A stretch of 64,000 bases of DNA from Candidatus Cloacimonadota bacterium. Its GTDB lineage: Bacteria > Cloacimonadota > Cloacimonadia > Cloacimonadales > TCS61. A program made the translations under genes and the position numbers. The DNA is taken from contig JASUTE010000004.1 in assembly GCA_030445745.1 (NCBI GenBank), forward strand, positions 88,173 to 152,172. The letters run 5' to 3'. Each line of letters opens with the position of its first letter. The stretch's first letter is position 1. The notes under the pieces were generated by a model that did no database searches, was not told the origin of the DNA, and worked only from the letters and a program-made list of their open reading frames with translations. Below are positions 1 to 54,644 of the stretch, piece by piece.

Positions 1-191
1 TAATGAAATTTGTGCAGCACGAACCAACATTTCTGGAAAAAACAGAAAAATTGGAGCAATTACGTTTCTTGGAAAACGGCACAAGAATTAAAATGGTGCA
101 AACCAACTACAAAGGCTTTGGTATCGATACCTTGGAAGATCTAAAGGCTGCCGAGAAATTATTGAATGTTTTGGAGAACACCACTAAATAA
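1..191 (+). CDS. kdsB: 3-deoxy-manno-octulosonate cytidylyltransferase (CMP-KDO synthetase), C-terminal fragment, open at window start
   Basis: The frame is open from the window edge. The tail ...[16 protein letters not shown]...[17 protein letters not shown] matches the conserved KdsB C-terminus (LEQLR..G..I ... G[IV]DT.EDL). Confidence 0.6.
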
Positions 192-1346
192 AATAGTTCC
201 TGTTTCTCTGTGTTTTATGAGAAATAAAAAGGGATGATCGGCGCGAAAAATTTTGTTTTTCACAGGTGGTGCCGATTTTATGGCAACCACGCCGCCAGTA
301 GCTGCAGCAGCTTCTGTTCCTGTTTCATCTACCTGCACAAATGCTTTATGCAACACTGCACTCAAGTATAGGGCTTTCTGCTTATTCATACCCGAAAGGT
401 CAGCGTCATTGCCGAAGACATCCTTCATTCCCATTTTCTGCAAAACTGCTTTCAAATTCAAGGTTTTAGTAAGCTTAAATTTGGGTATTATTACTTCAAC
501 TCTTTCTGGTTTTGGTTTAGAATGCTGTTTTTCATTGTTGGTAAGTGAACCTAAAACATCATCGATATTGCTGTTTGCTTTAGGCAGTAAAATTTCCAAA
601 TATAGCTCGTTTCGTTTGTAAGGAATTTGAACCAGCTGATACTTTGGATTCTCAGTGTAATTTATGGTTAATTCTTTGCGCATAAAATCAGTTTGCTGTT
701 TTTCGGCAGCAGCATAGAAATAATCCTCAAAATTATTTTTGGGGTCAAATGGGAACTCCCAGTTTCCTAGAAAATAGATGGCATCGGTTAAAACTACTCT
801 GGTTGTAGGTTGCAAAATGCCTGGTTTTATTAAATCTTTTATCTTGTTTTTTGTTTGAGCTTCAACCCATCTATTAATTTTTTGTCTAGATTTTTCCAAA
901 GAAGCTGGTGTAGAAAAATTTAGTTTATAGGCTTCTGTTTGGTAATATTTCTGTAGTTTTTTTTGGTAGGAATTTAGTAGCTGAAAATCTTGCTGCACCC
1001 ACAAGGCATTGGCAATATTCAGTTGGGAATATTTTACCTGTTTCACAGAGTTTGTTTGGGAAGCAAAAGCTGCCTGGAAATCTTCTGAATTATCAAAATA
1101 CAGCACTTGTTGCATCTGTTTAGCGGTGTTACCTTTAGCACCTGCATATACCATCGCCAAAGCGGTTCGGATGCTAAAGGAAGAGAGAAATAAGTTTTCC
1201 GTGGTATCTAGATTTTGTAGGAGGTCGTAGCAGAATTGGTGATTGGGATTTTCTGGCATAGAAAAAGGCTTTTCTGCCTGGTTGGCGGACATTCCAAATA
1301 ACAAGGAATTGATGAGCACGAGGGCAATTAATAAAAGTTTATACAT
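159..1346 (-). CDS. secreted serpin (serine protease inhibitor) family protein
   Basis: 395 aa with an N-terminal signal peptide ([21 protein letters not shown]). It has the serpin hinge and reactive-centre loop [22 protein letters not shown] and the C-terminal signature [23 protein letters not shown]. Confidence 0.9.
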
Positions 1347-2121
1347 ATTTTTCTCCTTCTTGTAATATTTTCGAGCTTTCTACTGCTCTGTAAGGGTAAA
1401 AATTCTTGTTTTCTGGCTTTATCGCTTCAGTGGGGCAAAAACTAAGACAGCGCATACACATTTGGCACTCATCTTCGAACTCGGGATAATGATCCATAGT
1501 GATGTTATCTACTGGACATAATTTGTAGCAAAGTCCGCATTTTATGCACTTGGTAGTGTCTATATCAAATTCATATTTATTTCGTAGGAGATCCAAAAAT
1601 TTTTCACTTTGTGATATTTTTTTCATAGGATTGGGTAGGGGAAGATGAGGCCACTTACTAATGCCGAAAGTGATATCGTGGGCAAATTTACGAGCTTTAT
1701 TAATCCCTTTCTCTTGCAGTTTTTCAACTTTGGGTGCTGGTTTTTTTAGGTTCATATTATGTGGCATTTTTATCTCTTTAGCACCAATGGGACGATAGCC
1801 CTTCTTTTTTAGAAGCCTGTAAACAGCACTTTTTAAACTACTACTAAAAATTGCCATGGTATCCACCATGAAAGCATCTTGCGGTTCTGCGATAGTGGGA
1901 ATATCTTCCAAAAATTCCCAGATAAATTTAAAGGTGGATTGCATAATTACAGGAAAAGCCAAACCTAGTAAATTATCTGGATTTATTTGGTCTGCTTCCG
2001 ATTTTTCTATACGAAAAAGATCAACTTTATAACCATGTGTTTCAAAGAAGTCTTTCATCTCTTTTACCACAAGGTAGGTGTTTCCAGTACCCGAAAAGTA
2101 ATAAAAATCTAATTTTTTCAT
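1339..2121 (-). CDS. EFR1-type flavodoxin-like domain fused to a 2x[4Fe-4S] ferredoxin domain
   Basis: The N-terminus YYFSGTGNTYLVVKEM is a flavodoxin-like signature. The C-terminus carries CIKCGLCYKLCP and CQMCMRCLSFCP motifs. Start overlaps... rather, its stop region overlaps the serpin start by 8 nt. Confidence 0.75.
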   Translation of the reverse strand: MKKLDFYYFSGTGNTYLVVKEMKDFFETHGYKVDLFRIEKSEADQINPDNLLGLAFPVIMQSTFKFIWEFLEDIPTIAEPQDAFMVDTMAIFSSSLKSAVYRLLKKKGYRPIGAKEIKMPHNMNLKKPAPKVEKLQEKGINKARKFAHDITFGISKWPHLPLPNPMKKISQSEKFLDLLRNKYEFDIDTTKCIKCGLCYKLCPVDNITMDHYPEFEDECQMCMRCLSFCPTEAIKPENKNFYPYRAVESSKILQEGEKYV

Positions 2122-16913: not shown

Positions 16914-17480
16914 ATGAAAATAGTCAGAACAGTTATGATCTTGGTGCTAGTATTGCTTTCTGTAGCAGCATTAGCCGAACTAAAAGGAAAGGATTTTGTG
17001 GAGAAGGGTGAACTGCAAGAATTTAGCGGAAACCTAATAAAGACTGATGAAGAGTGGTCTTTACAGACAGAAGAAGCCACTTTTGATTTGCATTTTGGCC
17101 CACAGGAATATCTGCAGAGCAAAGAAGTTGTGCTGCAAGAAGATACAGAAATAAATTTAACGGGCTATTTGTATAAAAAAAATATTGCCGTTGTTAAGTT
17201 TGTTTACTATGATGTTAATGTGGTTTTGCGAAGCGATAAAGGTGATCCACTTTGGCATGGCACAAAATATGCCAAAAAACATGATAAGCATTACGTGGAT
17301 TCCAGCAAATGCATTGGCTGCAAACTTTGTGTTAGTGCCTGCCCCACAGGTGCTATTAGCATGAAAGATGGCAAAGCTGTTATCGATCCGGACAAATGTA
17401 TAAACTGTGGTATTTGTATAAATGGAAATGGTCAGGGGTTTTCCGGTTGTCCGGTAAAGGCTATAAACAAGAATGAATAA
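16914..17480 (+). CDS. signal-peptide protein with an unknown N-terminal domain and a C-terminal 2x[4Fe-4S]-type ferredoxin module
   Basis: Sec signal MKIVRTVMILVLVLLSVAALA. Cys motifs CIGCKLCVSACP and CINCGIC(x9)CP. GGAGGA RBS sits 6 nt upstream of the start. Confidence 0.7.
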   Translation: MKIVRTVMILVLVLLSVAALAELKGKDFVEKGELQEFSGNLIKTDEEWSLQTEEATFDLHFGPQEYLQSKEVVLQEDTEINLTGYLYKKNIAVVKFVYYDVNVVLRSDKGDPLWHGTKYAKKHDKHYVDSSKCIGCKLCVSACPTGAISMKDGKAVIDPDKCINCGICINGNGQGFSGCPVKAINKNE

Positions 17481-18261
17481 ACGAGATAAAATTCGTTTTT
17501 TTAGTCAGCTTTTTTTCCTAATAGTATCGTTAACGCTCTTAGTTTTGCTAATTTTAGGATTTCTAGGAGTATCGCACTCTTACTGTCCATTTGCCAGTGT
17601 TTGTTTTGGAATTCTGGGGCTTAGTCCTGCAGTTTCGGTTTGGTTGTTTAAAACAGCTGCTATTGTAGGAATTCTAATAGCTTTCAGTACGGTCTTTTGG
17701 GGAAGAAAGTTTTGCGGTTATATATGTTTCTTGGGCACACTTCAGGAATTTATTTACAATTTGAACTGCAGCCGGAAAAAGTATTGTCGGAAACTGTCTT
17801 ATAAAACTCATTTAATTTTAAGAGTGTTAAAGTATCTGGTACTTATCTTTACAGCAGTGACTGCTTTCTTGGCTCTACAGTATCTATATATGAAATTTTG
17901 TCCAGTGTATGCATTAGCTCATCCCCAAAACATTAGCTTAGCAGCAGTATTTACTTTAATTGTGATATTTGTTTTGGGAGTGTGGGTCGAAAGATTTTGG
18001 TGCAGATATTTGTGCCCTTATGCAGCATTGATGAATCTATTCCAATATATGGGTAAATTGCTGGGAATTAAAAGACAGAAAATTAGAAGAAATATTGAAG
18101 CAAGCGTGAATTGTAAAACTTGTTCAAATTATTGTCCAATGGGCATAAAAATTGAATGTAAAGAGGAGATAAGTAATATTAACTGCATACATTGTGGTCG
18201 TTGTGTTAGAAAATGTTTGAAAGACAATTTCTCTAAAGAACAGTGTTTATACAGAGATTAA
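17473..18261 (+). CDS. polytopic membrane 4Fe-4S-binding protein (NapH/MauN/NosR-type polyferredoxin)
   Basis: Multiple TM helices. Family-typical motifs RKFCGYICFLG and RFWCRYLCPYAAL, plus C-terminal CKTCSNYCP and CIHCGRCVRKC. 8-nt overlap with the upstream gene. Confidence 0.7.
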   Translation: MNKRDKIRFFSQLFFLIVSLTLLVLLILGFLGVSHSYCPFASVCFGILGLSPAVSVWLFKTAAIVGILIAFSTVFWGRKFCGYICFLGTLQEFIYNLNCSRKKYCRKLSYKTHLILRVLKYLVLIFTAVTAFLALQYLYMKFCPVYALAHPQNISLAAVFTLIVIFVLGVWVERFWCRYLCPYAALMNLFQYMGKLLGIKRQKIRRNIEASVNCKTCSNYCPMGIKIECKEEISNINCIHCGRCVRKCLKDNFSKEQCLYRD

Positions 18262-18264
18262 ATT

Positions 18265-19230
18265 ATGAAAAAGATACTCATATTTTTAGCGATTTTAAGT
18301 TTATTCGCTTGTGATGATTCTATTTCCAAGCTTAGTCTAGATAATACAGCTCCTAACCCGGTTTCTAATTTGCAAATATTAGAAACGGGAGGAGATTATG
18401 TGAAGTTGATATGGAGTGTACCAGATTCCAAAGATGCTGCTTTTTACAAAATTTATAAAAAATTAAGTACGGAAACAGAGACTATTACCAACTTTATTTT
18501 TACCGATCAACTTCAAGTTAACTTACAAAACACTCAGCAGGGTATAATTATAGACAGCTTAGCTTTCAGCAATAATTACGATTTTGCCGTTTCGGTGTGC
18601 GATGAAAGCATGAATGAGAGCGAATTACAAAAAATAACAGGTATTGAAACGCTTAACAATAATCCTGTTGACACAACACCTCCAGGTGATATTGCACAGC
18701 TGCAGTTGGTACCTACATTTTCGGAAGGCTATGAGATAATTGACGTAGTTATAACAGCTTCTTTTGTTGCACCAGGCGATGATGGCGATAACGGTATAAC
18801 CGAGATTGAAGTAAGATATTCACCATTTGGACCAGTTAATTCAGATAACTGGCAAACCGCTTTTCCTTATCAGGGTACAGTTTTTAGTGGTATTGCTGGA
18901 GAAACCACAATAATTGAACTTCCCTTGAAAAAATGTATGGCTCCCCCTCCCGTTCCACCCAATTATGCTTTTTATTTTGCTGCCAGAGCTATTGATGAAG
19001 CAGGAAATACTTCGGCTATCAAGAGTTTTTCTGGTAAAATAACCGCAGAAGTTATCCGTAAAAGCTGTATTTCTTGTTGGGAATGTTTAGATATTTGCCC
19101 GGAAAATGCTATCTCCAAACAAAACGGAAAGGCTTCTATCGATTTGAGCAAATGTGTGCGCTGTGGCGATTGTATTTTAACCTGTGAAGAAAAAGGTAAT
19201 GAAGCAATAAAATATTATATAACAGAATAA
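18265..19230 (+). CDS. lipoprotein with FN3-like domains and a C-terminal 2x[4Fe-4S]-type ferredoxin module
   Basis: Lipobox LSLFAC. FN3-like signatures (PNPVSNLQILETGGDYVKLIWSVP; DTTPPGDIAQLQL). Cys motifs CISCWECLDICP and CVRCGDCILTC. Confidence 0.65.
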   Translation: MKKILIFLAILSLFACDDSISKLSLDNTAPNPVSNLQILETGGDYVKLIWSVPDSKDAAFYKIYKKLSTETETITNFIFTDQLQVNLQNTQQGIIIDSLAFSNNYDFAVSVCDESMNESELQKITGIETLNNNPVDTTPPGDIAQLQLVPTFSEGYEIIDVVITASFVAPGDDGDNGITEIEVRYSPFGPVNSDNWQTAFPYQGTVFSGIAGETTIIELPLKKCMAPPPVPPNYAFYFAARAIDEAGNTSAIKSFSGKITAEVIRKSCISCWECLDICPENAISKQNGKASIDLSKCVRCGDCILTCEEKGNEAIKYYITE

Positions 19231-19247
19231 AAGAGAGGTAGGAGAAG

Positions 19248-19787
19248 ATGAAAAAGAAAATAATTTACGCGATAATTTTGCTGTTTGTAATGGCCGTAAC
19301 ACTATATGCTGCTAGGGTTATCTATCAAATAGACCCCGATCAGTGTAATGGTTGTGGTGAGTGTTTTGTACAATGTCCCAATGATGCTATCTATTATGAT
19401 TATGAAGTATGGACTTATCAGATCAATCCAGAATTATGTGATGGTTGCGGAGATTGTGTAGATACTTGTAATCATAATGCTATTCATGAAGTTGTTAGCA
19501 ATGGCAGTGAAGAGATCGATCCTAATTTAAAGATATCTTGTTTCCCCAATCCACTTAGCTCTAATACAACTATTTCTTATGATATGCACAACGGGCAAAA
19601 AGGAGAAATAGTTATCTTTAACATCAAAGGCAGAAAAATTCGTTCTTTTCCAATAGAAAGCCGTACTGGCCAGGTCAGCTGGGATGGAAAGGATAGAGCT
19701 GGCAATGAAGTTGCAGAAGGTATTTATTTCTATAAATTGAAAACCGGCAATAGAAAAGTGATAAAAAGACTAACTGTAATAAAATGA
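19248..19787 (+). CDS. signal-peptide ferredoxin module fused to a T9SS-type C-terminal sorting domain
   Basis: Signal MKKKIIYAIILLFVMAVTLYA. Cys motifs CNGCGECFVQCP and CDGCGDCVDTC. The C-terminal ~85 aa (CFPNPLSSNTTISY...GIYFYKLKTGNRKVIKRLTVIK) match the por_secre_tail / FlgD-Ig-like pattern. Confidence 0.7.
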   Translation: MKKKIIYAIILLFVMAVTLYAARVIYQIDPDQCNGCGECFVQCPNDAIYYDYEVWTYQINPELCDGCGDCVDTCNHNAIHEVVSNGSEEIDPNLKISCFPNPLSSNTTISYDMHNGQKGEIVIFNIKGRKIRSFPIESRTGQVSWDGKDRAGNEVAEGIYFYKLKTGNRKVIKRLTVIK

Positions 19788-20026
19788 AAAAAATTAATAT
19801 AATTTTAGTTTTAGTGCTGCTGCTCATTATTTCGTGTGCAGCAGCCTCTGCTGCTTATCGAGTAAATACAAACGACTGTGTAGGTTGTAATGATTGTGTT
19901 AAAGTGTGTCCTGTAAATGCGATCTCTATCGAAGATGGAAAAGCTTATATAGACCAGGAGAAATGCATCAAATGTGGGTTGTGTTATAAAACCTGTACTT
20001 ACGAAGTTATTAGGAAATCAAAATGA
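19784..20026 (+). CDS. small (80 aa) signal-peptide/lipoprotein 2x[4Fe-4S]-type ferredoxin
   Basis: MKKINIILVLVLLLIISCAAASA followed by CVGCNDCVKVCP and CIKCGLCYKTC. ATGA overlap on both sides. Confidence 0.65.
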   Translation: MKKINIILVLVLLLIISCAAASAAYRVNTNDCVGCNDCVKVCPVNAISIEDGKAYIDQEKCIKCGLCYKTCTYEVIRKSK

Positions 20027-20265
20027 GAAAAATTGCTATTCTATTCTTGCTAATTGTTCTGATAGCTGTTTGGGGTTGTGAAAAAGTTAGCAATCCCCAA
20101 TATCATGTAGATAAAGAATCGTGTAATGCTTGCGGAGAATGTTTAATTGTATGTCCCGTAGACGCTATTGAATTCGACGCAGATGGTAAAGCTGTGATCG
20201 ACCAAACCAAATGTAACCAATGTGGCAAATGTATAAATGTTTGCCCTCAGGATGCGATATACTAA
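20023..20265 (+). CDS. small (80 aa) lipoprotein-type 2x[4Fe-4S]-type ferredoxin
   Basis: MRKIAILFLLIVLIAVWGC lipobox, then CNACGECLIVCP and CNQCGKCINVCP. Confidence 0.65.
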   Translation: MRKIAILFLLIVLIAVWGCEKVSNPQYHVDKESCNACGECLIVCPVDAIEFDADGKAVIDQTKCNQCGKCINVCPQDAIY

Positions 20266-21461
20266 TGAAAAAATTGTTTTTATTGCTTATAGTTTTATAT
20301 GCTGTAACCGTACAAGCTCAGCTATCCAGTTATACCGATATCAGTTTTCGCTATATTAATACCGATTCCAGTAGTGAATTTTTTACCGATCCCAATGATT
20401 CAGAGGTGAAAAAGGCTAGTGGCTACTCGGGTATGGATTGGGAATATCATCTTAACTACAAGTTCAACAAAAATTTATTTCTTACATGGAATAATCAGCT
20501 TTTTTATTCTGAAGTATCGTCAGAGTTACGCAATTCCTTCCTATACGATAAAAGCCGCTTGAGTATAGGTTTTCGAAATTCTGTTCACAAACTTTCACTT
20601 TTTCTGAATAACAGGTTTTATGGAGATGATGATACCACGATCTCGAATATTGCCGGCTTAGATACTTTGATTAAAAAAAGAGCCACCTTTGCTTATGGCT
20701 TAAACTATGAGCTGAATTTCGGGAAACTAGAATTTGCTACTTCCGGTTACTATAGAAATTTGCGCTACTTAGAATACACAACCAGTCAAAATGAATGGGA
20801 AAATGATCTCTACTTAGCTAGTAAGCTCGGTTACCAGATTATACCACACTGGCAAATTTTCACCAATTTCTACTATAAAGATGACCTAAACCAGGTGGAT
20901 TGGTACGACCAGACTAAATGGGGGGCAGGAGTTGCCTACGAAAATAGATTTGACTTTTTCAACTCTGTAGAAGCAGTGGTGAATTATTTTCATAGCGAAA
21001 CAGATGAGTTGCCCCAATATCAGAATGACTATCTTTTCACCAAAGTTCGCTATTTCAAAAGATTTGGCACAACTTTCAGTAGCTTTATAACTTATATAAA
21101 TCGTAGTACCTACAACACTTCCCAAGAAAAACTCTTGCGGATCTCTAATTTAATAAGACTGCAGGCAAAATATATTTATCAAGAAGGCAGAGCAGAATCT
21201 TCTTATCTACTGTTTTCCGGAAAATATAATCCAGAGAATTCTGGCAGTAAGTTACGCTTGGGTGTGAACCAGCATTTATTTAAAGACCTCTATTTTGGTA
21301 TAGCTGGTGAGTATGCACCAGACCTGTACAATGGTTATGAAGGAGAATTCCGATATTTACTTAGCGGATTTCGCTATCTCTACCTGCGCTATCAACTGCG
21401 GGATTACCAGGATTTTGTTGGTACTCAGAAGATTCAGGCAGGCCTTTCTTACCAGTTTTAA
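20265..21461 (+). CDS. predicted outer-membrane beta-barrel protein, family unknown
   Basis: I place the start at the ATG in the TAATG overlap at 20265 (MKKLFLLLIVLYAVTVQA signal peptide). The track start at 20220 lies inside the upstream gene. The protein is Tyr/Asn/Gly-rich with an alternating strand pattern and a C-terminal ...AGLSYQF, typical of an OMP beta-signal. Confidence 0.55.
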   Translation: MKKLFLLLIVLYAVTVQAQLSSYTDISFRYINTDSSSEFFTDPNDSEVKKASGYSGMDWEYHLNYKFNKNLFLTWNNQLFYSEVSSELRNSFLYDKSRLSIGFRNSVHKLSLFLNNRFYGDDDTTISNIAGLDTLIKKRATFAYGLNYELNFGKLEFATSGYYRNLRYLEYTTSQNEWENDLYLASKLGYQIIPHWQIFTNFYYKDDLNQVDWYDQTKWGAGVAYENRFDFFNSVEAVVNYFHSETDELPQYQNDYLFTKVRYFKRFGTTFSSFITYINRSTYNTSQEKLLRISNLIRLQAKYIYQEGRAESSYLLFSGKYNPENSGSKLRLGVNQHLFKDLYFGIAGEYAPDLYNGYEGEFRYLLSGFRYLYLRYQLRDYQDFVGTQKIQAGLSYQF

Positions 21462-21468
21462 TTTAATT

Positions 21469-21486
21469 TGAGAATCATTCGCAAAA
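21469..21486 (+). promoter_or_regulatory. Fur-box-like palindromic operator, copy 1, abutting a TTGACA -35 hexamer (21493-21498) upstream of fur
   Basis: TGAGAATCATTCGCAAAA. It is near-palindromic, with the AT-rich GAATSATTC core typical of Fur boxes. Two further copies lie at 21982 and 24256. Confidence 0.6.
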
Positions 21487-21536
21487 ATAAGCTTGACACA
21501 TAATAAGCGCTGTGCAATTTAGGCGCAGAGGTTATT

Positions 21537-21981: not shown

Positions 21982-21999
21982 TGAGAATGAATTGCAAAA
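21982..21999 (+). promoter_or_regulatory. Fur-box-like operator, copy 2, 22 nt upstream of the feoB start
   Basis: TGAGAATGAATTGCAAAA, matching copies 1 and 3 at 15-16 of 18 positions. Confidence 0.6.
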
Positions 22000-22020
22000 T
22001 CAAATAGTTGAGAGGTTAAC

Positions 22021-24258
22021 TTGAAAAAATATACAATAGCATTAGCAGGAAATCCCAATTGTGGTAAAACTACCCTGTTCAACGCTTTTACCGGTTCCAA
22101 ACAAAGGGTAGGCAACTGGCCAGGTGTAACTGTAGAAAAAATTATCGGTAACTATAAATATAAAGATGCTGAATATGAAATTATCGACTTGCCTGGAATA
22201 TATTCCTTTTCAGCACATTCGATGGACGAAACAGTATCCCGAGAGTTTATCTTGATGGAGAAACCAGACTTAGTAGTGAACATTATAGATGCTACTAACC
22301 TGGAAAGAACACTCTATCTTACTACCCAGCTTCTGGAAATGAAGATTCCAGTTATTATCGCGCTGAATATGATGGATATGGCTAAACAGCGGCGGATAAA
22401 GATAGAGCTGGATCATTTAGCCAAGCACCTTGATACAAAAATAATATCTATTGTAGCACCCAAAAAACAAGGTCTGGATGAATTAAAACAACAAATTGCT
22501 GAAAGTGTAGAAAAACAACATATTCCTCATACCCAGGTGGAATACGATTCCGTGGTAGAAACAGCTATAAATGAGATAGCTCCGCAGTTAGATAAATATG
22601 CCAAAAAATATCAAGTAGATAAACGCTGGCTAGCTATCAAACTGTTGGAAGAGGACAAGTTAGCTGCTCAGCTTACCAATTCCGACTTAGCAGATCTAGT
22701 AAATCAGCAGATCCAGAAAATAGAAAAACATACTAATAACGATGTGGAAATTGTAATTGCAGATGGACGCTATGGTTTTATTCATGGATTAACTTTGGAT
22801 GTGGTTCATAAAGCTGGTGATGCTCGGCGTAATTTTTCCGATCTGGTAGATAGTATCGTATTAAATCGTGTTTTGAGCATTCCCATATTTTTGGGAGTGA
22901 TGTATCTGGTATTTATGCTAACAATAAATGTGGGTTCTCCCTTCATAGATTTTTTTGATAATTTAATGGGCACTATTTTTGTGGATGGTACAGAGTACTT
23001 TTTACAAAGTCTTAATGCTCCAGCATGGCTTATTTTACTACTGGCACAAGCTTTAGGAGGTAGCATTCAAACAATTTCCACCTTTATTCCTCCTATTTTC
23101 TTTATGTTTCTATCGCTTTCCATTTTAGAAGATTCGGGTTATATGAGCAGGGCTGCTTTTGTGATGGACAGGTTTATGCGCTTCATTGGCCTCCCGGGAA
23201 AAGCATTTATTCCAATGTTGGTGGGTTTCGGTTGCAATGTTCCAGCAATAATGGCAACCAGGACACTGGAAAATAAAAAAGATAGACTCTTAACTATTCT
23301 AATTAACCCATTAATGTCCTGCGGTGCCAGATTACCTGTTTATACACTTTTCGCAGCAGTATTTTTCCCTGAACATGGAGGACAGGTAATTTTTGCACTC
23401 TATCTCACTGGTATTGTCTTAGCTATAATATTCGGGCTAATTTTCAAGAAAACTCTTTTCAAAGGCGAAACTTCTACATTTGTTATGGAACTATCACCTT
23501 ATCACCTACCAACTTTCAACGGAATTATGTTACATACCTGGCAACGTCTGAAAGGTTTTATCATCAGAGCTGGGAAAGTAATCGTAATTTTTATAATTAT
23601 ATTAACTGTGTTAAATTCGGTGGGAATAGATGGAAGTTTGGGCAATCAGGATTCAGAGAATTCTGTGTTAAGCTACATTGGGAAAAAGATTAGTCCGATT
23701 TTCCAACCAATGGGAGTACAGCAGAAAAATTGGCCAGCAGTAGTTGGTATGATGACGGGTATTTTTGCTAAAGAAACAGTGGTAGGAACGCTGGATGCAC
23801 TTTATTCGCAACTGGCTGGAGCTCAGCAGCAAGTAGAAGAAGAAACCGGTTACGATTTTACCTCGGGTATAGTTGCTTCTTTTCGGGCTATAGCTACTGG
23901 ATTTGGTATAATAGAAGCTAAAGATGGAGAAACTACTCTACAAAAGGGTGTTACCAGAGAAATGATGAACAGATTTGGTGGAAAGAATAATGCTTTTGCC
24001 TATCTGCTATTTATACTTATTTATGCTCCCTGTGTGGCTGTAATCGGCGCTATTTACAAGGAAACAAACCTGAAATGGACATTTTTTTCTGTTTCCTATT
24101 TAACCATGTTGGCATGGTTGGTAGCCACTTTGTTTTACCAAGTTTCGATAATTGCGATACAACCTGCTGTAAGTTTGGGTTGGATTCTGGGAATTAGCTT
24201 GATTTTCTTTGGATTCTATAAAACACTACAAAAGATAAAACCAGGTGAAACTTTTTGA
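22021..24258 (+). CDS. feoB: ferrous iron transporter FeoB
   Basis: TTG start preceded by a GAGAGG RBS. N-terminal G-domain GNPNCGKTTLFN...DLPG, followed by the polytopic FeoB permease domain. 745 aa. Confidence 0.93.
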   Translation: MKKYTIALAGNPNCGKTTLFNAFTGSKQRVGNWPGVTVEKIIGNYKYKDAEYEIIDLPGIYSFSAHSMDETVSREFILMEKPDLVVNIIDATNLERTLYLTTQLLEMKIPVIIALNMMDMAKQRRIKIELDHLAKHLDTKIISIVAPKKQGLDELKQQIAESVEKQHIPHTQVEYDSVVETAINEIAPQLDKYAKKYQVDKRWLAIKLLEEDKLAAQLTNSDLADLVNQQIQKIEKHTNNDVEIVIADGRYGFIHGLTLDVVHKAGDARRNFSDLVDSIVLNRVLSIPIFLGVMYLVFMLTINVGSPFIDFFDNLMGTIFVDGTEYFLQSLNAPAWLILLLAQALGGSIQTISTFIPPIFFMFLSLSILEDSGYMSRAAFVMDRFMRFIGLPGKAFIPMLVGFGCNVPAIMATRTLENKKDRLLTILINPLMSCGARLPVYTLFAAVFFPEHGGQVIFALYLTGIVLAIIFGLIFKKTLFKGETSTFVMELSPYHLPTFNGIMLHTWQRLKGFIIRAGKVIVIFIIILTVLNSVGIDGSLGNQDSENSVLSYIGKKISPIFQPMGVQQKNWPAVVGMMTGIFAKETVVGTLDALYSQLAGAQQQVEEETGYDFTSGIVASFRAIATGFGIIEAKDGETTLQKGVTREMMNRFGGKNNAFAYLLFILIYAPCVAVIGAIYKETNLKWTFFSVSYLTMLAWLVATLFYQVSIIAIQPAVSLGWILGISLIFFGFYKTLQKIKPGETF

Positions 24259-24273
24259 GAATGATTTGCAAAA
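24256..24273 (+). promoter_or_regulatory. Fur-box-like operator, copy 3, overlapping the feoB stop codon and 41 nt upstream of feoA
   Basis: TGAGAATGATTTGCAAAA. The TGA at 24256-24258 is the feoB stop. Confidence 0.55.
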
Positions 24274-24314
24274 AATCTAAAAATAAATAGTTTTTAAAAT
24301 AAAAAGGATAAAAA

Positions 24315-38923: not shown

Positions 38924-41900
38924 CTATTTTATTATGGCTATGGGAACTTTTTGAGTTTCTCCCCGAGAACTGATAACTGCAAAATATACACCCGAGCTGA
39001 ATTTGTCAGTAGAAAACCAGATATCTTTAGAATTCCCATCATTTTTTTCTATATTATCCGAATAAATTTTATGGCCAGCTATGTCAAATATCTTAATTTT
39101 TATATCCGCTTTCGCATTTTTCACTTTTATTCTAAATTCACCTTTTTTAGCTGGATTGGGGAAAGCAAAAGCTGCTAAATTTTCAGTCTCGGATATTGGC
39201 ATATCAATAAAAGCTTCATATAAACCACTGTAGTTATTACGGTAACCTTGCCAAACCAAGGGGTTTACCTGGACGGAATCTTTTCGAGAAGCAAAAAGAT
39301 TATGATTACTATCTTGGTGAAAATAGAAAAGATTTTTCTGAGAACCTTGCCAGAAATAACTGTGTTTATTTGTAAATTCGGAATTGGAAATACTGAATTC
39401 TGGATGCTGATTGCCCAGGTTGTCTATAGCTATACTAGCATCATTGTCGGTACTTAGTACTATCATTGTAGCTTGAGCGAAATTTATAATCTCTGGAAAA
39501 CTGTTAGCAAGTATGTTTTTATTTTCCACATAAGCCGGAAATCCTTCCAATAGTGTACCATCAAGAGTTAGAGCAAAAACTCTGTCCCTTATTCCAAAAG
39601 TGATGTAAACCTGATTTTCGTCTGTCAATTTGCCTAAAGCCAATTGTGAAGCTTCATTGCCCCAGTTTTCTGCTGTAAATATTCTTTCATAATCATTACC
39701 AGATAATTTGTAGATATTCGCTTGCTCATCTTGGATGAAAACAGCAGAATTAGCTGCATTTAAGGTATCATTGTAGCAAACTGGTTCGTAATTGGCAGTA
39801 GAGTGTGGCAGATTGATCTGATGAGTAATTTGTCTATTTTCTATGTCTATGAAATTCACCACATTATCGGTAACAGCGATCAACTGGGAATTGTTGTACG
39901 CCAGTTTTGCCGCTGGTAAATCGAACTGGCTCTCTCCTATATATAGTATTTCCGCAGTAGCCACTACTTTCTGTGAGATTTCGGGAAGATAGAGAGGAGG
40001 TGAAGTTATTTCAGTTGGATACTCATTTTCGGAAATATATTCGTCAGAAACAATAGTAAGTTTATTGTTTGCTACTAAATAAAATTCATTATTAGGAGAT
40101 TTTCTGCCAACTGTAATTGGTTGAGTCAACTCACCAGTATATTCTTCTTCCCACTGTAAATGATTAGCTACAGTATTATTTATGATGGAAAAGAGCTCTA
40201 CTTTATTATCTTCCACAACTGGGAAGGTAGGAAAATCATAAATATTACCAACTGGACCGATAGCTTGCAGAAAATCGTATTCAGCTATTTTACTAGTATT
40301 TTGGAAGTACTGCGTACCCAGTTTGAAGCTGATTGTTCGAGTTTGATCGGCCTGCAGGCTGCAGCTACCAATATCGTACACACGGTAGATGGAGTTTTGA
40401 CCGGAATTAAGCTGCAGTGCCGGTTCACTAGTTGACGAAAGCTCGTCGTTAAAAGTAGGAAGTGTTTGCCCAGCAGCATAATTTATGTCCCAATTCAAAA
40501 AATAACCATCACTGCTGAGTTCAGGAAGATATCTGTGGTAGGGCTCATAAGCTGTGCCCCGCCAATATTGAGAATAAGCATTACCAATATCCGGCAGGTT
40601 GTCTGCTTCTATTATTTTTACAGCACGATTGGAATGACTGGTATTTACACTATTGTTGGCAAAGTTATTATTCTCGTACAAAATCTTCTGATCGATATGC
40701 CAAACTACTATGCCACCACCTACAGCCTCTCCGGTGCTCTTTTGCCAGCCGGGTAAAAGATAGTCATATTCATATGTGGGCTGGTCATAAGGATCATCAA
40801 AACGGCAAGGATAAAGAGCAACTCTGTTACCGGAAGTGGTTACAACCGATGTTCCGCCATCACCATCTGAATCTACTTGCCGATTTTCCAAAAGAAGATA
40901 TTCTTCATTTCCCAATGGGATCTTTACAAAATATGGGTTTTCGCAGTTTTCTGTAAGTTTTTTTTCAACTGGTTCTAAAATGATCTCTTCGTCAAAAGTT
41001 AAATCAGAGGCATTTTTATAGATTCTTTCTTGTTGGAATTCATTTTCCCACACCAGTAACCGAGTCCAAACACTGGGTAAAGTAGGCAGGACGCCTTCTA
41101 TATAAAATAGTTTATCATCTTGTCCGTCGCCATCGGTATCTTGCACAACACCAGAAAGCCCAGCTCCGCCACTATCCATAATATCCCAATAACCTACTTC
41201 TGGTCTATGATTGTAAGTATTGTATAGATCTACAAAGCCCAAAGAATGACCAAATTCATGAGCCATAACTGCATTAATAACTCCATAATTGTAAACAATA
41301 GGCATTGAATTAGTTTCGTATTGTTCTATATCTTGCGTTATTGTTTCAGGTACATTACAAGCATAGTCTATCATCACAGTACCATCATCTACGTAAACTT
41401 CTTTTCCGTCTCCCATGGTAATAAAGAAAGATGGCATGTCATTGGGTGAATTACCCAAAACATCATGCTGCCAGTCCGAACCAGCGTGAATTAGCATAAA
41501 ATGATCGTATTGGGAAAAATCTATCTGAGGCGAGGTTTGATCGGCGATATGGAAACAATCGGCAAAGTATTCCTCGAATCTACTAACCATTAGTTGTTGA
41601 TCAGATGTACCTGGTGAATAATAGGACAATTTATGGGGTAAGGTATAGGCATTAAATTCACCAGATTTAGAAACTGGAAAGATATCGTAGTTCAAATTAA
41701 AATTACCAAAACTGACAGCTTTGTAATAATATCGCAGACTAGTTAGTTGATCGCTAAAAAACTGATAGTTATGAGGAGGTTTTCCCAAACTGGGTTGGTA
41801 TCCCGTGGTATCTTGCACAAATTGACCATTGCCAGTGGTAGTGCTGGTTGTATCTGGTTGAAATTGAACTAAAAGCACAAGAAGATTTTCAAAGTTCCTA

Positions 41901-42067
41901 GATTTTGCTAAGATCTCTCTTTTACCAACACCAGAAAATTCTGTTTCCAGTGGATGCACATTTTTTTCCTCTATTTGAGGATATGATATTTTTTGCAGCT
42001 TCATTTTCTCAGCTATTGCTAACTGAGAAAACAGCAGCAGACAAAATATTAAGCTGAAACGCTTCAT
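38924..42067 (-). CDS. M6 (immune inhibitor A-like) family metalloprotease with a T9SS-type C-terminal sorting domain
   Basis: 1047 aa with a signal peptide and the zinc motif VMAHEFGHSLGFVDLY. The C-terminal ~80 aa (AFAFPNPAKKGEF...SGVYFAVISSRGETQKVPIAIIK) fit the por_secre_tail pattern. TAATG overlap with the upstream gene. Confidence 0.8.
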   Translation of the reverse strand: MKRFSLIFCLLLFSQLAIAEKMKLQKISYPQIEEKNVHPLETEFSGVGKREILAKSRNFENLLVLLVQFQPDTTSTTTGNGQFVQDTTGYQPSLGKPPHNYQFFSDQLTSLRYYYKAVSFGNFNLNYDIFPVSKSGEFNAYTLPHKLSYYSPGTSDQQLMVSRFEEYFADCFHIADQTSPQIDFSQYDHFMLIHAGSDWQHDVLGNSPNDMPSFFITMGDGKEVYVDDGTVMIDYACNVPETITQDIEQYETNSMPIVYNYGVINAVMAHEFGHSLGFVDLYNTYNHRPEVGYWDIMDSGGAGLSGVVQDTDGDGQDDKLFYIEGVLPTLPSVWTRLLVWENEFQQERIYKNASDLTFDEEIILEPVEKKLTENCENPYFVKIPLGNEEYLLLENRQVDSDGDGGTSVVTTSGNRVALYPCRFDDPYDQPTYEYDYLLPGWQKSTGEAVGGGIVVWHIDQKILYENNNFANNSVNTSHSNRAVKIIEADNLPDIGNAYSQYWRGTAYEPYHRYLPELSSDGYFLNWDINYAAGQTLPTFNDELSSTSEPALQLNSGQNSIYRVYDIGSCSLQADQTRTISFKLGTQYFQNTSKIAEYDFLQAIGPVGNIYDFPTFPVVEDNKVELFSIINNTVANHLQWEEEYTGELTQPITVGRKSPNNEFYLVANNKLTIVSDEYISENEYPTEITSPPLYLPEISQKVVATAEILYIGESQFDLPAAKLAYNNSQLIAVTDNVVNFIDIENRQITHQINLPHSTANYEPVCYNDTLNAANSAVFIQDEQANIYKLSGNDYERIFTAENWGNEASQLALGKLTDENQVYITFGIRDRVFALTLDGTLLEGFPAYVENKNILANSFPEIINFAQATMIVLSTDNDASIAIDNLGNQHPEFSISNSEFTNKHSYFWQGSQKNLFYFHQDSNHNLFASRKDSVQVNPLVWQGYRNNYSGLYEAFIDMPISETENLAAFAFPNPAKKGEFRIKVKNAKADIKIKIFDIAGHKIYSDNIEKNDGNSKDIWFSTDKFSSGVYFAVISSRGETQKVPIAIIK

Positions 42068-47758: not shown

Positions 47759-49417
47759 TTAAAATCTACTTTCAACTCCAAAATGCAATAATCCTTGCAT
47801 TGGAGCACTAAATTTTCCGTTTTGATAATTTAAGGCATAATCTAAATGAAATAAACCTAATCTGGTTTGCAACATCAAACCAGCACCAAAACCGCACAAT
47901 AGACCATATTTGTAAACATCATTTTCTATATACCCATGATCGATAAAAATATAACTACGGCTAGTACGAGATAACAAATATCTAAACTCCAAAGTTGTTA
48001 CAGCCGTTCTGTAACCATAAAATTCATTTTCTCTAAATCCACGCAGACTATTGTAGCCGCCTATTTCATAATAATCCAGATCTGTTAAATCCTTATTTTC
48101 TGCTACCTTGATTTTTGTTTGCAAAGCTAAACTAAGTCTATTTTTAATTGGAATATAACGCGCTGCTTCCCACTCTACGGCCTGGTGCGAGTTTTCTTCC
48201 GAACCGCTATCGTTCATGATATAAAAATAGCGTAGTGAAAATGTTTGCCCATCGCGAGGATTTTTGCGATTATCCACATTCCTATATTCCCATAACACAC
48301 CTGTTTTAGTATAATTGCTTTTTTCGTATATTTTAGGTCGGCGGCTTCCCGGGTAAATTCCATTCCATCCCAAAATAATTCCATAACGACTTTTTAGGTC
48401 CGTATAATAAACTTCAGTTTCTACTTCTGTGTCAATGTAGGTAGAATCTACTTCTTCGCGAAATAAGGAAAGATCGGCATTTACTGGCACGCTATTTACT
48501 CCAGTTTCGTGATAGTTCAATTGTACAGAACTGCGAGAAGCTACCAACCTCTGCCATTGTAAAGACAAAGACCGCCCCGTTCCAGATAAATTCATAAACT
48601 GCAAATCCACGAAACCTGTCAGTTGATTGTCTTCCTGGGCCGAATTATCGTAACCTAGCAAAAAAGCTAACTGAGTCATTTTATCTTCTTCAATTTTTAT
48701 AAGCAAATTATCTGAATTTACAGGGATAATTTCTGCATTTTTAATGTATTCTTCATCTTCCAGATTTTCTTCTGCTAAACGAATGAGTTCTGGTGTAAGC
48801 AATTGGTAGTTTTGTAGGCCTGAAAGTCGAATTAAAGTATTTTCGGTAGTCACTTTGTTGCCTTGAAACCTAAAATTCTCAATCTCACAAGGCTTACCCT
48901 CGTTGATTTTTAAAAATACTTTCAGGTTTTCATCTGTTTTTACAATTTTTTGCAAGGAAATAGAAGCAAAAAGAAAACTCTGGTCATTGTAATATTGCAC
49001 TATTTCTTTCATAAATTTGGGAAGCTGTTGCAATTGAGAAACATTTCCAACCTGCTCTCTTAGTTTATTGCTGGTTATATAAGAATTACCGGTAAATTCT
49101 ATACTAGCAATATTGATATTGGCATTTTCTTGTATTGAATAGATAATTTTTAATTTTTGAGCTGGCAAAAACTCTATGTCTGGTTGAAATATTTTGGCAA
49201 AATAGAGTCCTTTGTTTTGATAAAGCCTGCTAAGGCGCTGGGCATCTTCACTAAGTTTTTGTTCGGAATATTCCGCCCCTGGCTTTAAACTTAAAATTTT
49301 TAAGATCTGTTCATCGTTTATTAGCTGATTACCTTCTAAAACTACATCTTCCACAATAACCTGTGCTACCAGAGAAGTACAAAAAAACATTAGGAAAAGC
49401 AGCTGGCTAATTTTCAT
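47759..49417 (-). CDS. BamA/TamA-family outer-membrane protein (short, reduced POTRA region)
   Basis: Signal peptide, POTRA-like N-terminal repeats, and an Omp85 barrel with ...GGYNSLRGF... and a C-terminal ...LLHFGVESRF. At 552 aa it is shorter than a canonical five-POTRA BamA. Confidence 0.75.
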   Translation of the reverse strand: MKISQLLFLMFFCTSLVAQVIVEDVVLEGNQLINDEQILKILSLKPGAEYSEQKLSEDAQRLSRLYQNKGLYFAKIFQPDIEFLPAQKLKIIYSIQENANINIASIEFTGNSYITSNKLREQVGNVSQLQQLPKFMKEIVQYYNDQSFLFASISLQKIVKTDENLKVFLKINEGKPCEIENFRFQGNKVTTENTLIRLSGLQNYQLLTPELIRLAEENLEDEEYIKNAEIIPVNSDNLLIKIEEDKMTQLAFLLGYDNSAQEDNQLTGFVDLQFMNLSGTGRSLSLQWQRLVASRSSVQLNYHETGVNSVPVNADLSLFREEVDSTYIDTEVETEVYYTDLKSRYGIILGWNGIYPGSRRPKIYEKSNYTKTGVLWEYRNVDNRKNPRDGQTFSLRYFYIMNDSGSEENSHQAVEWEAARYIPIKNRLSLALQTKIKVAENKDLTDLDYYEIGGYNSLRGFRENEFYGYRTAVTTLEFRYLLSRTSRSYIFIDHGYIENDVYKYGLLCGFGAGLMLQTRLGLFHLDYALNYQNGKFSAPMQGLLHFGVESRF

Positions 49418-54041: not shown

Positions 54042-54225
54042 TTCTCCTCCTCATTTCTTTCTAAGTTATTCTTTTGATATTTGTCAATTTAAAATATTCA
54101 CTGGTAAACCCCGAATTTTTGATAATGTCCAGAACTGGTGTAAAAAAGTTGAGCCAAAATTCAATCCTCATAACTTGGTTTAAGCAAAAATCAAAACAAG
54201 GACTAGAATAATAGCTCAAGTGTAA

Positions 54226-54513: not shown

Positions 54514-54644
54514 ATCTTTTATGAGGAATTTACATACTTTTGGGGACTTGACTGTTTAATAGATATTTAAAGTAAGAAATATAAATTGTTTGACGTTTTT
54601 TCTTACAAACTTTTTTTGAACCGAAAATAGGATAAGGAGAGCTT

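Follow-up and report, generated by a model that had tools for sequence, protein, structure and literature searches.

The operon between positions 16,914 and 21,461 of the analysed window, a 64-kb (64,000-nt) stretch of a Cloacimonadota genome, raises the question of whether electrons could cross an outer membrane through ferredoxins instead of cytochromes. The answer suggested by our analysis, to which we give slightly less than an even chance, is that the cluster is a haem-free porin-ferredoxin electron conduit built from 2x[4Fe-4S] folds. MtrCAB is a haem-based conduit; the candidate described here uses ferredoxin folds and is known from genes and models only. No published description of such a porin-ferredoxin cluster was found in the literature. 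If the proposal is true, the system would be an iron-sulfur counterpart of the haem "wires" in an uncultured, cytochrome-poor phylum.

Organization of the Operon

The operon consists of seven tightly packed genes (g1 to g7), all on the plus strand, with overlaps of 8, 4, 4, and 1 nt and gaps of 3 and 17 nt, and it ends 75 nt before fur. Rechecking of the ORFs reproduced exactly these coordinates and spacings as given in the original prediction, and all ten cysteine motifs quoted there were found in the protein sequences. The profile searches that it had proposed (Pfam/TIGRFAM) recovered the expected domain make-up. The original observation of genes, modules, signals, and barrel is confirmed as correct in each checkable detail. 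The CxxCH haem motif, said to be missing from the seven proteins, was indeed absent from all of them in a motif scan, and no multi-CxxCH ORF exists within the window. The window contains one further Fer4 ORF (1339–2121, minus strand), which has no hydrophobic N-terminus. Since this is the only other one, the combination of signal and Fer4 is a trait of the cluster and not of the ferredoxins of this genome in general.

Predicted Export of the Ferredoxin Modules

Five of the seven proteins (g1, g3, g4, g5, and g6) contain a 2x[4Fe-4S] module, with matches to Fer4 families at E values of 1e-7 to 1e-17 (Pfam). All five begin with a K/R-rich N-terminus followed by an h-region of 12–17 residues. Export signals were judged by rules (hydropathy, h-region, and positive-inside), and this analysis places all five modules outside the cytoplasm, in agreement with their predicted export. 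The claim that every ferredoxin has a Sec signal or a lipobox stands for all five, except that the lipobox of g5 (IISC) is not kept in its orthologues; these resemble substrates of signal peptidase I. No RR pair occurs in the first 30 residues of any of the seven proteins. The signals are of the Sec or lipoprotein kind, with very hydrophobic h-regions and without a twin-arginine.

The two CxxCxxCxxxC motifs retain their eight ligand cysteines without exception in the alignments of g5-like (n = 8) and g6-like (n = 12) sequences, and the orthologues of g5/g6 from lineages L024 and L025 also have all eight. Across 24 sequences no ligand cysteine is lost, and the prolines of the CP motifs and the core residues of the ferredoxin are kept.

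In known exported Fe-S proteins, clusters are loaded in the cytoplasm and the folded protein is then exported via Tat. We know of no pathway for [4Fe-4S] assembly outside the cytoplasm. Sec-type signals imply export of an unfolded apo-protein, which makes cluster acquisition the main biochemical obstacle, one that the original prediction did not mention; the route by which Sec-exported proteins acquire their clusters is the chief difficulty for a conduit.

The Barrel and Its Two Small Ferredoxins

The last gene, g7 (20265–21461), encodes a 398-aa protein without a Pfam or NCBIfam match. It has an N-terminal signal peptide (VQA-Q) and ends in GLSYQF, the last residue being F. The original prediction of an outer-membrane barrel is borne out by an AlphaFold2 model (54-sequence alignment), in which g7 forms a large, open, 20-stranded beta-barrel (pLDDT 93.5, pTM 0.83) with strands of 9–19 residues, short loops, and no plug domain. 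As modelled, a plug-less barrel of this size would need an occupant. The nearest folds are 22-stranded TonB-dependent transporter (TBDT) and 18-stranded OccK barrels, which are generic matches only (Foldseek). g7 itself shows no detectable sequence homology to MtrB/PioB; two distant members of its family reach the MtrB_PioB gathering score (26–27 bits vs. 23, Pfam), over 78 residues only. The family includes about 77 representatives, every named one being a Cloacimonadota "hypothetical protein", with the signature ..LISNxLRxQxKYS...KY(S/N)PEN. Based on these sequences, g7 seems to be the founding member of an uncharacterised barrel family, so far found in Cloacimonadota only.

Two 80-aa ferredoxins precede the barrel. 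The signal-peptide ferredoxin g5 (19784–20026) has a mature length of about 57 aa, its family ends in C[TSP]Y.AIR, and it may serve as a soluble periplasmic carrier. The lipoprotein g6 (20023–20265; lipobox VWGC, mature 62 aa) belongs to a family ending in CP..AIY, in which the lipobox cysteine is kept in 14/14 proteins and the mature length of 62 aa in 12/14. Its stop overlaps the start of g7, and it would be a lipid-anchored ferredoxin associated with the barrel.

A g6-like lipoprotein gene lies immediately upstream of the barrel gene, usually overlapping it, in all 14 lineages examined. The triad of g5, g6, and barrel occurs in the same 14, a g5-like ORF being found directly upstream of the g6-like gene at every locus with enough upstream DNA (in L010 and L014 as uncalled ORFs). 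The pairing persists at barrel identities of 19–33%, GC contents of 38–56%, and in differing neighbourhoods. For instance, in L027 the gene order is shuffled and accessory genes follow the barrel, but the triad remains paired. Genes for g1-like proteins and FN3-ferredoxins recur often among the loci. The original prediction had made its case depend on conservation of the gene set in relatives: the set is kept there in the form of the triad, whereas the seven-gene order is not.

The Inner-Membrane Side

The first gene, g1 (16914–17480), encodes a signal peptide (cleavage at about ALA-E), an N-terminal domain of ~100 aa without an assigned fold, and a C-terminal 2x[4Fe-4S] module with the motifs CIGCKLCVSACP and CINCGIC-x10-CP. 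Full-length orthologues are found in L024 (181 aa) and L027 (186 aa), each in an operon of like kind. It overlaps by 8 nt with g2 (17473–18261), a polytopic membrane polyferredoxin which matches Fer4_5 (49.7 bits vs. a cutoff of 22, Pfam). Its predicted likeness to NapH is upheld by an alignment of residues 55–254 to the NapH/MauN profile TIGR02163, at 66.6 bits and below the cutoff of 213, and by a shared topology of four TM helices with the N-terminus inside (hydropathy and positive-inside). Its CxxxC and CxxxCP motifs lie, together with the C-terminal Fe-S domain, on the K/R-rich, cytoplasmic side, and C38, C44, and C143 on the periplasmic face. The g1-g2 pairing resembles that of NapG-NapH, and g1 could be the periplasmic partner of g2 in a NapG-like role. 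Relatives of g2 (NosR, NapH, and CcoG types) serve periplasmic reductases.

No homologue of g2 was found in the other barrel loci compared; g2, like g4, is found only in the present species. The commonest membrane partner in other loci is a DsbD_2 protein with Cys-Pro motifs (CLxxC.P and FCPSF) in predicted TM1 and TM4; in six lineages its gene comes directly after the barrel gene or overlaps it. Neither the 64-kb window nor the minimal loci encode it, and in the latter the triad is surrounded by housekeeping genes without a transporter. Most loci show no obvious inner-membrane module for electron input. Where it occurs, DsbD_2 probably provides metal or keeps the cysteine ligands of the exported proteins in reduced form, which would allow clusters to be assembled outside the cytoplasm.

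The Putative Surface Ferredoxins

The lipoprotein g3 (18265–19230; lipobox LFAC followed by DDS) carries about 250 aa of FN3-like domains ahead of its C-terminal 2x[4Fe-4S] module. The predicted FN3 fusion is weak by itself (fn3 E 0.07, DUF4959 E 0.0015, Pfam), but it is strengthened by the L024 homologue (31% over 312 aa), which carries a clear fn3 match. Homologous FN3-ferredoxin lipoproteins are present in L024, L001, L009, L026, and L027, and 717-aa homologues have two ferredoxin modules with about five FN3 domains between them. It is conceivable that g3 is exposed at the surface.

In g4 (19248–19787), a signal peptide and a 2x[4Fe-4S] module are followed by a T9SS type-A C-terminal sorting domain. 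This domain, noted in the original prediction, exceeds the cutoffs of both Por_Secre_tail (39.1 bits vs. 27, Pfam) and TIGR04183 (41.6 bits vs. 23), and g4 would be a surface-attached ferredoxin. A homologue search for g4 gave only a same-species match. Further T9SS-CTD proteins are encoded in the window at 38924–42067 and 50476–53748.

A Candidate Conduit and Its Alternatives

The original interpretation of the operon as a trans-envelope conduit is partly supported. The proposal starts from the domain content, the export signals, the barrel fold, and the conserved, tightly coupled triad. Its core would be the soluble g5, the lipid-anchored g6, and the 20-stranded g7. The ferredoxin modules may dock at or within the lumen of g7, where their four clusters would form a chain through the outer membrane, comparable to that of MtrA and MtrC through MtrB. 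On the inner side, g2 and g1 would pass electrons into the periplasm from cytoplasmic donors or quinol, and on the outer side g3, on its FN3 stalk, and the T9SS-anchored g4 would display clusters at the cell surface to a mineral, a humic substance, or a syntrophic partner as acceptor or donor. It is by inference that we place clusters on the proteins outside the cell, dock these in the barrel, and assign a direction and a partner to the electron flow.

The conduit is favoured by the export signals of the ferredoxins (among them the lipobox of g6 in 14/14 and the CTD of g4), FN3 domains and barrel being extracytoplasmic by nature; by the retention of all eight ligand cysteines in both motifs; by the plug-less barrel model and its obligate association with ferredoxins in 14 lineages; by the MtrB_PioB scores of the two distant barrels over 78 residues; and by the resemblance of g1-g2 to NapG-NapH. 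The ferredoxin-centred metabolism of Cloacimonadota and the lack of multi-CxxCH ORFs in the window also favour it; published surveys describe no complete respiratory chain and a metabolism centred on ferredoxin, Rnf, and hydrogenase (PMC12590816; bioRxiv 10.1101/2021.10.08.463351), and pili are the only basis on which direct interspecies electron transfer (DIET) was suggested for the phylum (PMC13082233, PMC7382037). Against the conduit stand the Sec/lipoprotein instead of Tat signals and the lack of an obvious electron-input module in most loci, DsbD_2 belonging with transporters or two-electron thiol relays, not with ferredoxin reductases, and the minimal triads being set among housekeeping genes. 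The roughly five FN3 domains of the 717-aa homologues also part the two modules too far for a static wire, g7 lacks MtrB/PioB homology, and its Foldseek matches are generic.

A rather unlikely alternative is the acquisition of iron or FeS, in which exported apo-ferredoxin folds at the surface would bind Fe(II) or aqueous FeS clusters, or dissolve FeS/Fe(III) minerals by reduction, and iron would pass through the barrel to the periplasm and then to FeoB here or to a DsbD_2/LysE-clan transporter elsewhere. Pre-loaded clusters would be unnecessary, the Sec-exported apo-protein being the functional start, and the superfamily (Pfam clan) of DsbD_2, the commonest partner, includes many divalent-metal transporters. 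The habitats (digesters and Guaymas sediment) are probably sulfidic and scarce in free iron, and a precedent is the Fus system, in which ferredoxin crosses the outer membrane as iron cargo (PMC6793856). The operon adjoins fur-feoBAC in the present genome, and a Fur-box-like palindrome precedes fur, feoB, and feoA (three occurrences). However, no such palindrome was found upstream of g1, and the linkage to fur-feo is confined to the present lineage, being absent from every other barrel locus examined; for both reasons the original idea of an Fe(III) reductase feeding FeoB is weakened. Perfect dicluster motifs with their CP prolines and a NapH-like partner fit electron carriers better than metallochaperones, and the minimal triads lack a transporter.

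Thiol or sulfur redox outside the cytoplasm is improbable. Here the Cys-rich/Fe-S proteins would relay reducing equivalents exported by DsbD_2 or g2 to disulfides, polysulfide, elemental sulfur, or oxidants (protection from O2/ROS), both on the surface and in the periplasm, with the barrel as substrate channel or lipoprotein anchor. The DsbD_2 neighbours in six lineages and the periplasmic reductases served by g2 relatives are in line with this, but no locus encodes a catalytic subunit (molybdopterin, flavin, haem, rhodanese, or thioredoxin fold), DsbD_2 is missing here and from the minimal loci, and the invariant barrel-ferredoxin pairing is left unexplained. It is still less probable that the small proteins are clusterless, disulfide-rich or other-metal envelope proteins (structural, adhesive, or sensory) descended from ferredoxins, next to a Slam- or LptDE-like translocon or anchor. 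Cofactor loss is the simplest expectation for unfolded Sec export, Slam and LptDE are barrels encoded beside their own lipoprotein clients, and fusions to FN3 or T9SS domains are a typical trait of adhesins; yet ligand cysteines, CP prolines, and core residues are kept as in working ferredoxins (Fer4 E to 1e-17; 24 sequences), and the partners g2 and DsbD_2 are redox or thiol-maintenance proteins. Uncleaved anchors that leave the ferredoxins in the cytoplasm, beside an unrelated porin, are disfavoured as highly improbable. The h-regions of g1 and g4 (16–17 residues in these rule-based calls) reach the upper length range of signal peptides, but K/R-rich N-termini predict N-in, C-out, and g6-like lipobox cysteines, the CTD of g4, and the FN3 domains of g3 also stand against it, as does the translationally overlapped barrel pairing, which is invariant despite deep divergence and shuffled gene order.

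Gene Cluster and Ferredoxin Modules

The seven plus-strand ORFs at 16914-21461 (g1-g7) are laid out as originally described, with overlaps of 8, 4, 4, and 1 nt, gaps of 3 and 17 nt, and 75 nt between the last gene and fur. A motif scan located all of the cysteine motifs quoted for the ferredoxin proteins, and CxxCH is missing from all seven products. The Fer4-family matches of g1, g3, g4, g5, and g6 are strong (30.7-61.5 bits, Pfam Fer4 cutoff 21.1), and these proteins show the features of bacterial 2x[4Fe-4S] ferredoxins, that is, two CxxCxxCxxxC(P) motifs with eight Cys ligands and scores above the Pfam gathering threshold. Cluster binding by these five proteins is predicted from their sequences, and is especially uncertain because their export seems to be by Sec. 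The eight ligand cysteines are invariant in the aligned g5-like and g6-like orthologues from homologous Cloacimonadota loci, and are present in the copies of loci L024 and L025. No ORF with two or more CxxCH motifs exists in the 64-kb window, and CxxCH is equally absent from the proteins checked in L024 and L025. The only other Fer4 ORF of the window, and its only Fer4 protein without a signal, is an EFR1-type protein of 260 aa (1339-2121, minus strand) with a flavodoxin-like and not hydrophobic N-terminus. It adjoins the gene of a bacterial serpin (159-1346, minus strand; Pfam E 1e-106).

Localization and Export Signals

Localization was judged by hydropathy and the positive-inside rule. The proteins g1, g3, g4, g5, and g6 have a K/R-rich start followed by a hydrophobic core of 12-17 residues, and thus an N-in orientation is predicted, with the remainder of the ferredoxin chain exported. 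Lipoboxes typical of bacterial lipoproteins are found in g3 (LFAC) and g6 (VWGC). In the g6 family a [GAS]C lipobox is present in all 14 proteins, a conservation which is hard to account for except through lipoprotein processing. The IISC lipobox of g5 is not kept in the g5 orthologues. A sequence scan detected no RR pair in the N-termini of the seven window proteins, and no twin-arginine is visible in the aligned orthologues. The window ferredoxins show neither the S/T-R-R-x-F-L-K motif nor the moderately hydrophobic h-region of Tat substrates; the h-regions of the orthologues are strongly hydrophobic, with Kyte-Doolittle maxima over 12 residues of mostly 2.1-3.8. Export of the ferredoxin proteins by a Sec- or lipoprotein-type route rather than by Tat is well supported by these signals.

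The T9SS sorting domain attributed to the plus-strand gene g4 was recovered at its C-terminus, with both curated cutoffs exceeded (TIGR04183, 41.6 bits vs. 23; PF18962/Por_Secre_tail, 39.1 vs. 27), together with an N-terminal signal peptide. By its sequence, g4 qualifies as a true T9SS type-A cargo. The domain is not unique to g4, since it is carried by two further large proteins of the window, one with an M6-like peptidase domain and the other with pullulanase X25 and CBM-like domains (38924-42067 and 50476-53748, both on the minus strand). An Omp85/POTRA protein is encoded at 47759-49417.

Structure and Relatives of the Barrel

The reading of g7 (398 aa) as an outer-membrane barrel agrees with its AlphaFold2 model, in which a beta-barrel is predicted with a pLDDT of 93.5 and a pTM of 0.83 from a 54-sequence alignment (an alignment of two sequences gave an uninformative pLDDT of 49). 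The modeled barrel has 20 strands of 9-19 residues, short connecting loops and no plug domain. A signal peptide, a closed all-beta fold, an even strand number and a terminal F are all present, as in outer-membrane beta-barrels. Word-indexed searches gave few relatives and an exhaustive HMMER search was needed, by which a family of 77 representatives was collected, nearly all of ~400 aa. The most conserved motif of the family, KY(S/N)PEN, lies in the short loop joining strands 15 and 16. One protein matched by the family profile, P0071 (1474 aa), contains 14 separate matches, all at profile positions ~291-328 (the conserved ISN.LR..KYS region), and looks like a repeat protein composed of this motif.

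No Pfam or NCBIfam model matches g7. Foldseek returned generic large barrels only, with a probability of 1.00 to TBDT and OccK barrels, that is, 22-stranded TonB-dependent transporters (TM ~0.55) and 18-stranded OccK porins. PorP/SprF, Slam/DUF560, LptD, FadL, and TBDT were rejected as labels, as neither family matches nor a plug or TonB box domain were found. The search of g7 against Pfam PF11854 (MtrB_PioB) gave no match even at E 1. Two members of the family that are 19-21% identical to g7, P0069 and P0082, do reach this model with 26-27 bits against a cutoff of 23, over 78 of its 635 positions. Sequence searches of the PDB with the family profile or P0082 retrieved neither MtrB nor any other real relative, only spurious PD-L1 matches. 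Homology of the g7 family to MtrB is an open lead rather than a finding.

For a barrel of 20 strands and a shear of ~22, the calculated C-alpha radius is ~18 Å and the lumen roughly 25 Å. A clostridial-type ferredoxin of 55-60 residues is of the same order of size. An open barrel of these dimensions would normally need an occupant.

Conservation of the Triad in Cloacimonadota

The decisive evidence in this analysis comes from comparative genomics. Loci were sampled through look-ups of exact proteins and through one scan each of genomes and metagenomes. They represent 14 lineages of the ~77 representatives, in which barrel identity to g7 ranges from 100% to ~19% and GC content from 38 to 56%. 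The cluster of seven genes proved to be conserved only in part: the triad of g5, g6, and g7 is found in the 14 lineages, whereas g2 and g4 were found only in the window's own species. A search for g4 homologues returned that species alone, and no NapH-like gene exists in the other loci examined.

A g6-like lipoprotein ferredoxin is encoded directly upstream of the barrel in 14/14 lineages, and its gene usually overlaps the start of the barrel gene. These proteins end in ...CP..AIY and have a mature length of 62 aa in 12 of the 14 cases. In all loci with enough upstream DNA, the g6-like gene is preceded by a g5-like signal-peptide ferredoxin, ending in C[TSP]Y.AIR... In two loci (L010, 4262-4504; L014, 896-1138) this 80-aa gene, located between LemA and the g6-like gene, had been missed by the original gene callers. 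Between the mature g5-like and g6-like proteins no consistent pattern of complementary charge was seen, and charge is therefore not used as an argument for docking. All source-named family members (four named records) are "hypothetical proteins" of Candidatus Cloacimonetes/Cloacimonadota MAGs.

The genes around the triad vary. Minimal triads are located in a housekeeping neighborhood (rpsA, PAP2, LemA ... MscS, HAD, YjbQ). FN3-ferredoxin lipoproteins are found in the window and in L001, L009, L024, L026, and L027, and g1-like proteins in L024, L027, and the window. The L027 operon runs g5, g6, barrel, g1-like, FN3-ferredoxin and DsbD_2 (PF13386) membrane protein. That these parts are retained though reordered favors functional linkage over inherited synteny alone.

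Three of the FN3 lipoproteins have 717-718 aa (L001, 7334-9487; L009, 21-2174; L026, 5295-7451), with a variant dicluster module (CxxCxxCx5CP) after the lipobox, approximately five FN3 domains and a second module at the C-terminus. With these domains in between, the modules are too distant for direct electron transfer and a rigid wire is impossible, which suggests a tethered shuttle at best.

DUF2271 proteins recur a few kb from the triad, on either strand: L010, 8890-9972; L013, 14132-15244; and, on the minus strand, L015, 8214-9305; L020, 7484-8572; L023, 3042-4136; and L024, 741-2276. Those of L010, L013, and L015, for which domains were called, also contain CarboxypepD_reg and a T9SS-type C-terminal domain, and the copies of L020 and L023 were recognized by their N-terminal sequence only. 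This recurrence could reflect functional linkage or merely conserved synteny.

A DsbD_2 Protein beside the Barrel

A DsbD_2 protein of ~325 aa is encoded in six of these loci. Its gene is directly 3' of the barrel gene, or overlaps it, in L001 (11334-12332), L009 (3929-4927), L024 (9209-10180), L025 (9224-10210), and L026 (9273-10295), and is at the operon end in L027 (9060-10034). The protein has conserved CLxxC.P and FCPSF motifs and an extra C-terminal domain of 130 aa without assigned function; no NCBIfam model matched it, and the 64-kb window does not contain it. As a DsbD-superfamily protein (Pfam DsbD_2, 72 bits) encoded beside exported proteins whose cysteines would have to remain reduced to accept a cofactor, it resembles the CcdA/DsbD exporters, but it differs from them in its DsbD_2 branch, its additional domain, the lack of an NCBIfam model and its absence from the window. 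It is best explained as a maturation aid, which would keep the eight exported cysteines reduced as CcdA does for apocytochromes, or which might possibly move metal.

The NapH-like Protein and Its Partner

The assignment of g2 to the NapH type holds for its domain and topology and fails at the family cutoffs. The protein matches Pfam Fer4_5 (49.7 bits, cutoff 22), including the CxxxCP motif, and its residues 55-254 (~200) align with NapH/MauN, but its score to TIGR02163 is far under the cutoff (66.6 bits vs. 213.05), as is that to the NapH equivalog PRK09477 (52.7 vs. 234). By sequence g2 is NapH-like, not a NapH. A heuristic prediction from hydropathy and K/R distribution gives an N-in protein with four TM helices and both termini cytoplasmic, as in NapH/MauN. 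Both CxxxC(P) motifs, like the Fe-S domain at the C-terminus, fall in K/R-rich loops and are thus predicted to be cytoplasmic, which is the NapH arrangement. Three other cysteines, C38, C44, and C143, are predicted to be periplasmic (CPFASVC in the turn between TM1 and TM2, FCP in the loop between TM3 and TM4) and could form an electron exit site or a redox-active disulfide.

The gene of g2 overlaps that of the exported ferredoxin g1, a further likeness to NapGH, NrfCD, and MauMN. NapG contains four clusters behind a Tat signal, whereas g1 contains a single dicluster module behind a Sec-type signal. Moreover, no nitrate, nitrite or amine enzyme is found near g1 and g2, and the pair is confined to this lineage among the loci examined.

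Interpretation of the System and Its Alternatives

The common element of all lineages is a private 20-strand barrel without a plug that is obligately encoded with two conserved, exported folds of the dicluster-ferredoxin kind, of which one is soluble and the other lipid-anchored. We tentatively read it as a porin-ferredoxin electron conduit, at a little under an even chance. The g5 and g6 ferredoxins would associate with the barrel, either one per side or stacked in the lumen, which would place four clusters across an outer membrane of ~40 Å, much as MtrA and MtrC span it within MtrB. In the window's genome, a NapGH-like entry at the inner membrane may be provided by g2 and g1, and g3 and g4 may carry the chain on to the cell surface. 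Surveys of the Cloacimonadota describe the lack of a complete respiratory chain and reliance on ferredoxin, Rnf and hydrogenases (PMC12590816; bioRxiv 10.1101/2021.10.08.463351), and DIET with Methanothrix has been hypothesized from pilus genes only (PMC13082233, PMC7382037); together these make an electron outlet attractive.

The main difficulty is that the export signals are, by sequence, clearly of the Sec type, unlike those of the known exported Fe-S proteins (NapG, HiPIP, Rieske, and DmsB), which are loaded in the cytoplasm and exported by Tat. The Rieske-type cases are documented (PMC5449189). Cluster assembly could be extracytoplasmic, perhaps occurring spontaneously where anoxic habitats are rich in Fe(II) and sulfide, with the help of the DsbD_2 protein; alternatively, the ferredoxins could function in an apo or other-metal form, or their export could be unconventional. 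It is this conflict with the Tat rule that holds our confidence in the conduit short of even and keeps its rivals in consideration. The stronger proposal, in which the Cloacimonadota would have the first known outer-membrane conduit made of iron-sulfur ferredoxins only, with clusters installed extracytoplasmically after Sec export and the DsbD_2 protein as maturation factor, is rather unlikely as a whole.

Acquisition of iron or FeS, suggested by the fur-feoBAC genes downstream of g7, is an unlikely explanation. A palindrome, TGAGAAT(C/G)A(A/T)T(C/T)GCAAAA, lies upstream of fur (21465-21487, match at 21469), feoB (21982-22000), and feoA (24256-24274), with four matches against 0.6 expected by chance, the fourth being the reverse-strand reading of the fur site. 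It is probably the Fur box of this organism; the Fur-box consensus of E. coli has no match in the window. Neither the palindrome nor anything similar is present in the 48 nt upstream of g1, and fur/feo genes are near no other locus. The proposed linkage of the operon to fur-feo is thus not upheld, and the iron-uptake reading loses its main support. A thiol or sulfur redox system appears quite improbable, and envelope proteins devoid of clusters are less likely still. The conduit would be preferred to these readings, tentative as it is.

Comparison with Known Systems

In function, the closest designs are the porin-cytochrome conduits (MtrCAB of Shewanella, MtoAB/PioAB, and OmaB-OmbB-OmcB of Geobacter). 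Adjacent, tightly coupled genes for a periplasmic redox protein, a redox lipoprotein and a large plug-less barrel are shared with them, as are, in this lineage, an inner-membrane entry module and surface-displayed carriers, besides the local MtrB_PioB gathering scores of the two distant barrel relatives. The heme motif is absent here, and the cofactor would be [4Fe-4S]; no periplasmic multiheme cytochrome of the MtrA/PioA type is co-encoded. MtrB has 26 strands and ~700 aa, compared with 20 strands and ~400 aa in g7, which has no detectable sequence similarity to MtrB/PioB. The MtrCAB-type design originally invoked stands as a functional likeness but not as membership, for want of the heme motif and of an MtrB_PioB match in g7, and in view of the strand number. 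The system would be an analogue in which a porin and redox proteins likewise form the conduit, with another cofactor and from parts that are not homologous. Heme attachment in the periplasm is served by a known machinery (Ccm), whereas we know of none for periplasmic Fe-S insertion.

To our knowledge, the only well-known Fe-S subunit at the outer face of a Gram-negative cell is DmsB (4x[4Fe-4S]) in DmsEFAB of Shewanella, likewise next to an MtrB-like porin. There, DmsAB receives its cofactors in the cytoplasm, leaves it through Tat and is then moved outward by T2SS, and the trans-membrane wire is still the decaheme DmsE. In the LptDE plug-and-barrel and in Slam, a lipoprotein is encoded beside a dedicated outer-membrane barrel and associated with it or moved by it. 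The arrangement of g6 and g7 is similar, but g7 has no match to LptD, DUF560 or other families, and the client is a redox-cofactor fold with a second, soluble paralogue. In a full-text literature search, no account of a porin together with exported or secreted 4Fe-4S ferredoxins came up; a paper on Gallionellaceae in which such terms appear side by side is unrelated.

All characterized trans-outer-membrane electron conduits rely, as far as we know, on multiheme cytochromes. If a conduit of Fe-S proteins is confirmed, it would be a new molecular solution, whose intrinsically low potentials would suit syntrophs exporting low-potential electrons. [4Fe-4S] clusters would have to assemble after Sec export, in the periplasm or at the surface, by a process that we do not know to exist, and Tat would no longer be obligatory for exported Fe-S proteins; with such assembly confirmed, the system would be categorically new. 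The Cloacimonadota are an uncultured phylum that is abundant in anaerobic digesters and important to the digestion there, and a conduit would supply the cytochrome-free pathway that is missing for their electron transfer to minerals or directly between species. They have repeatedly been suspected of DIET (PMC13082233, PMC7382037), and the module offers a concrete, testable candidate of three small genes. Even if the conduit is wrong, phylum-wide lipid-anchored exported ferredoxins with a private barrel are an unannotated system that needs explanation.

At the far end of the window (54000-64000), the GC content is ~28%, compared with 34-43% elsewhere. This region contains a surface-polysaccharide cluster with Wzz, a Wzy-type ligase, a flippase, two GT4 glycosyltransferases and a heparinase II/III-like protein, which was possibly acquired horizontally.
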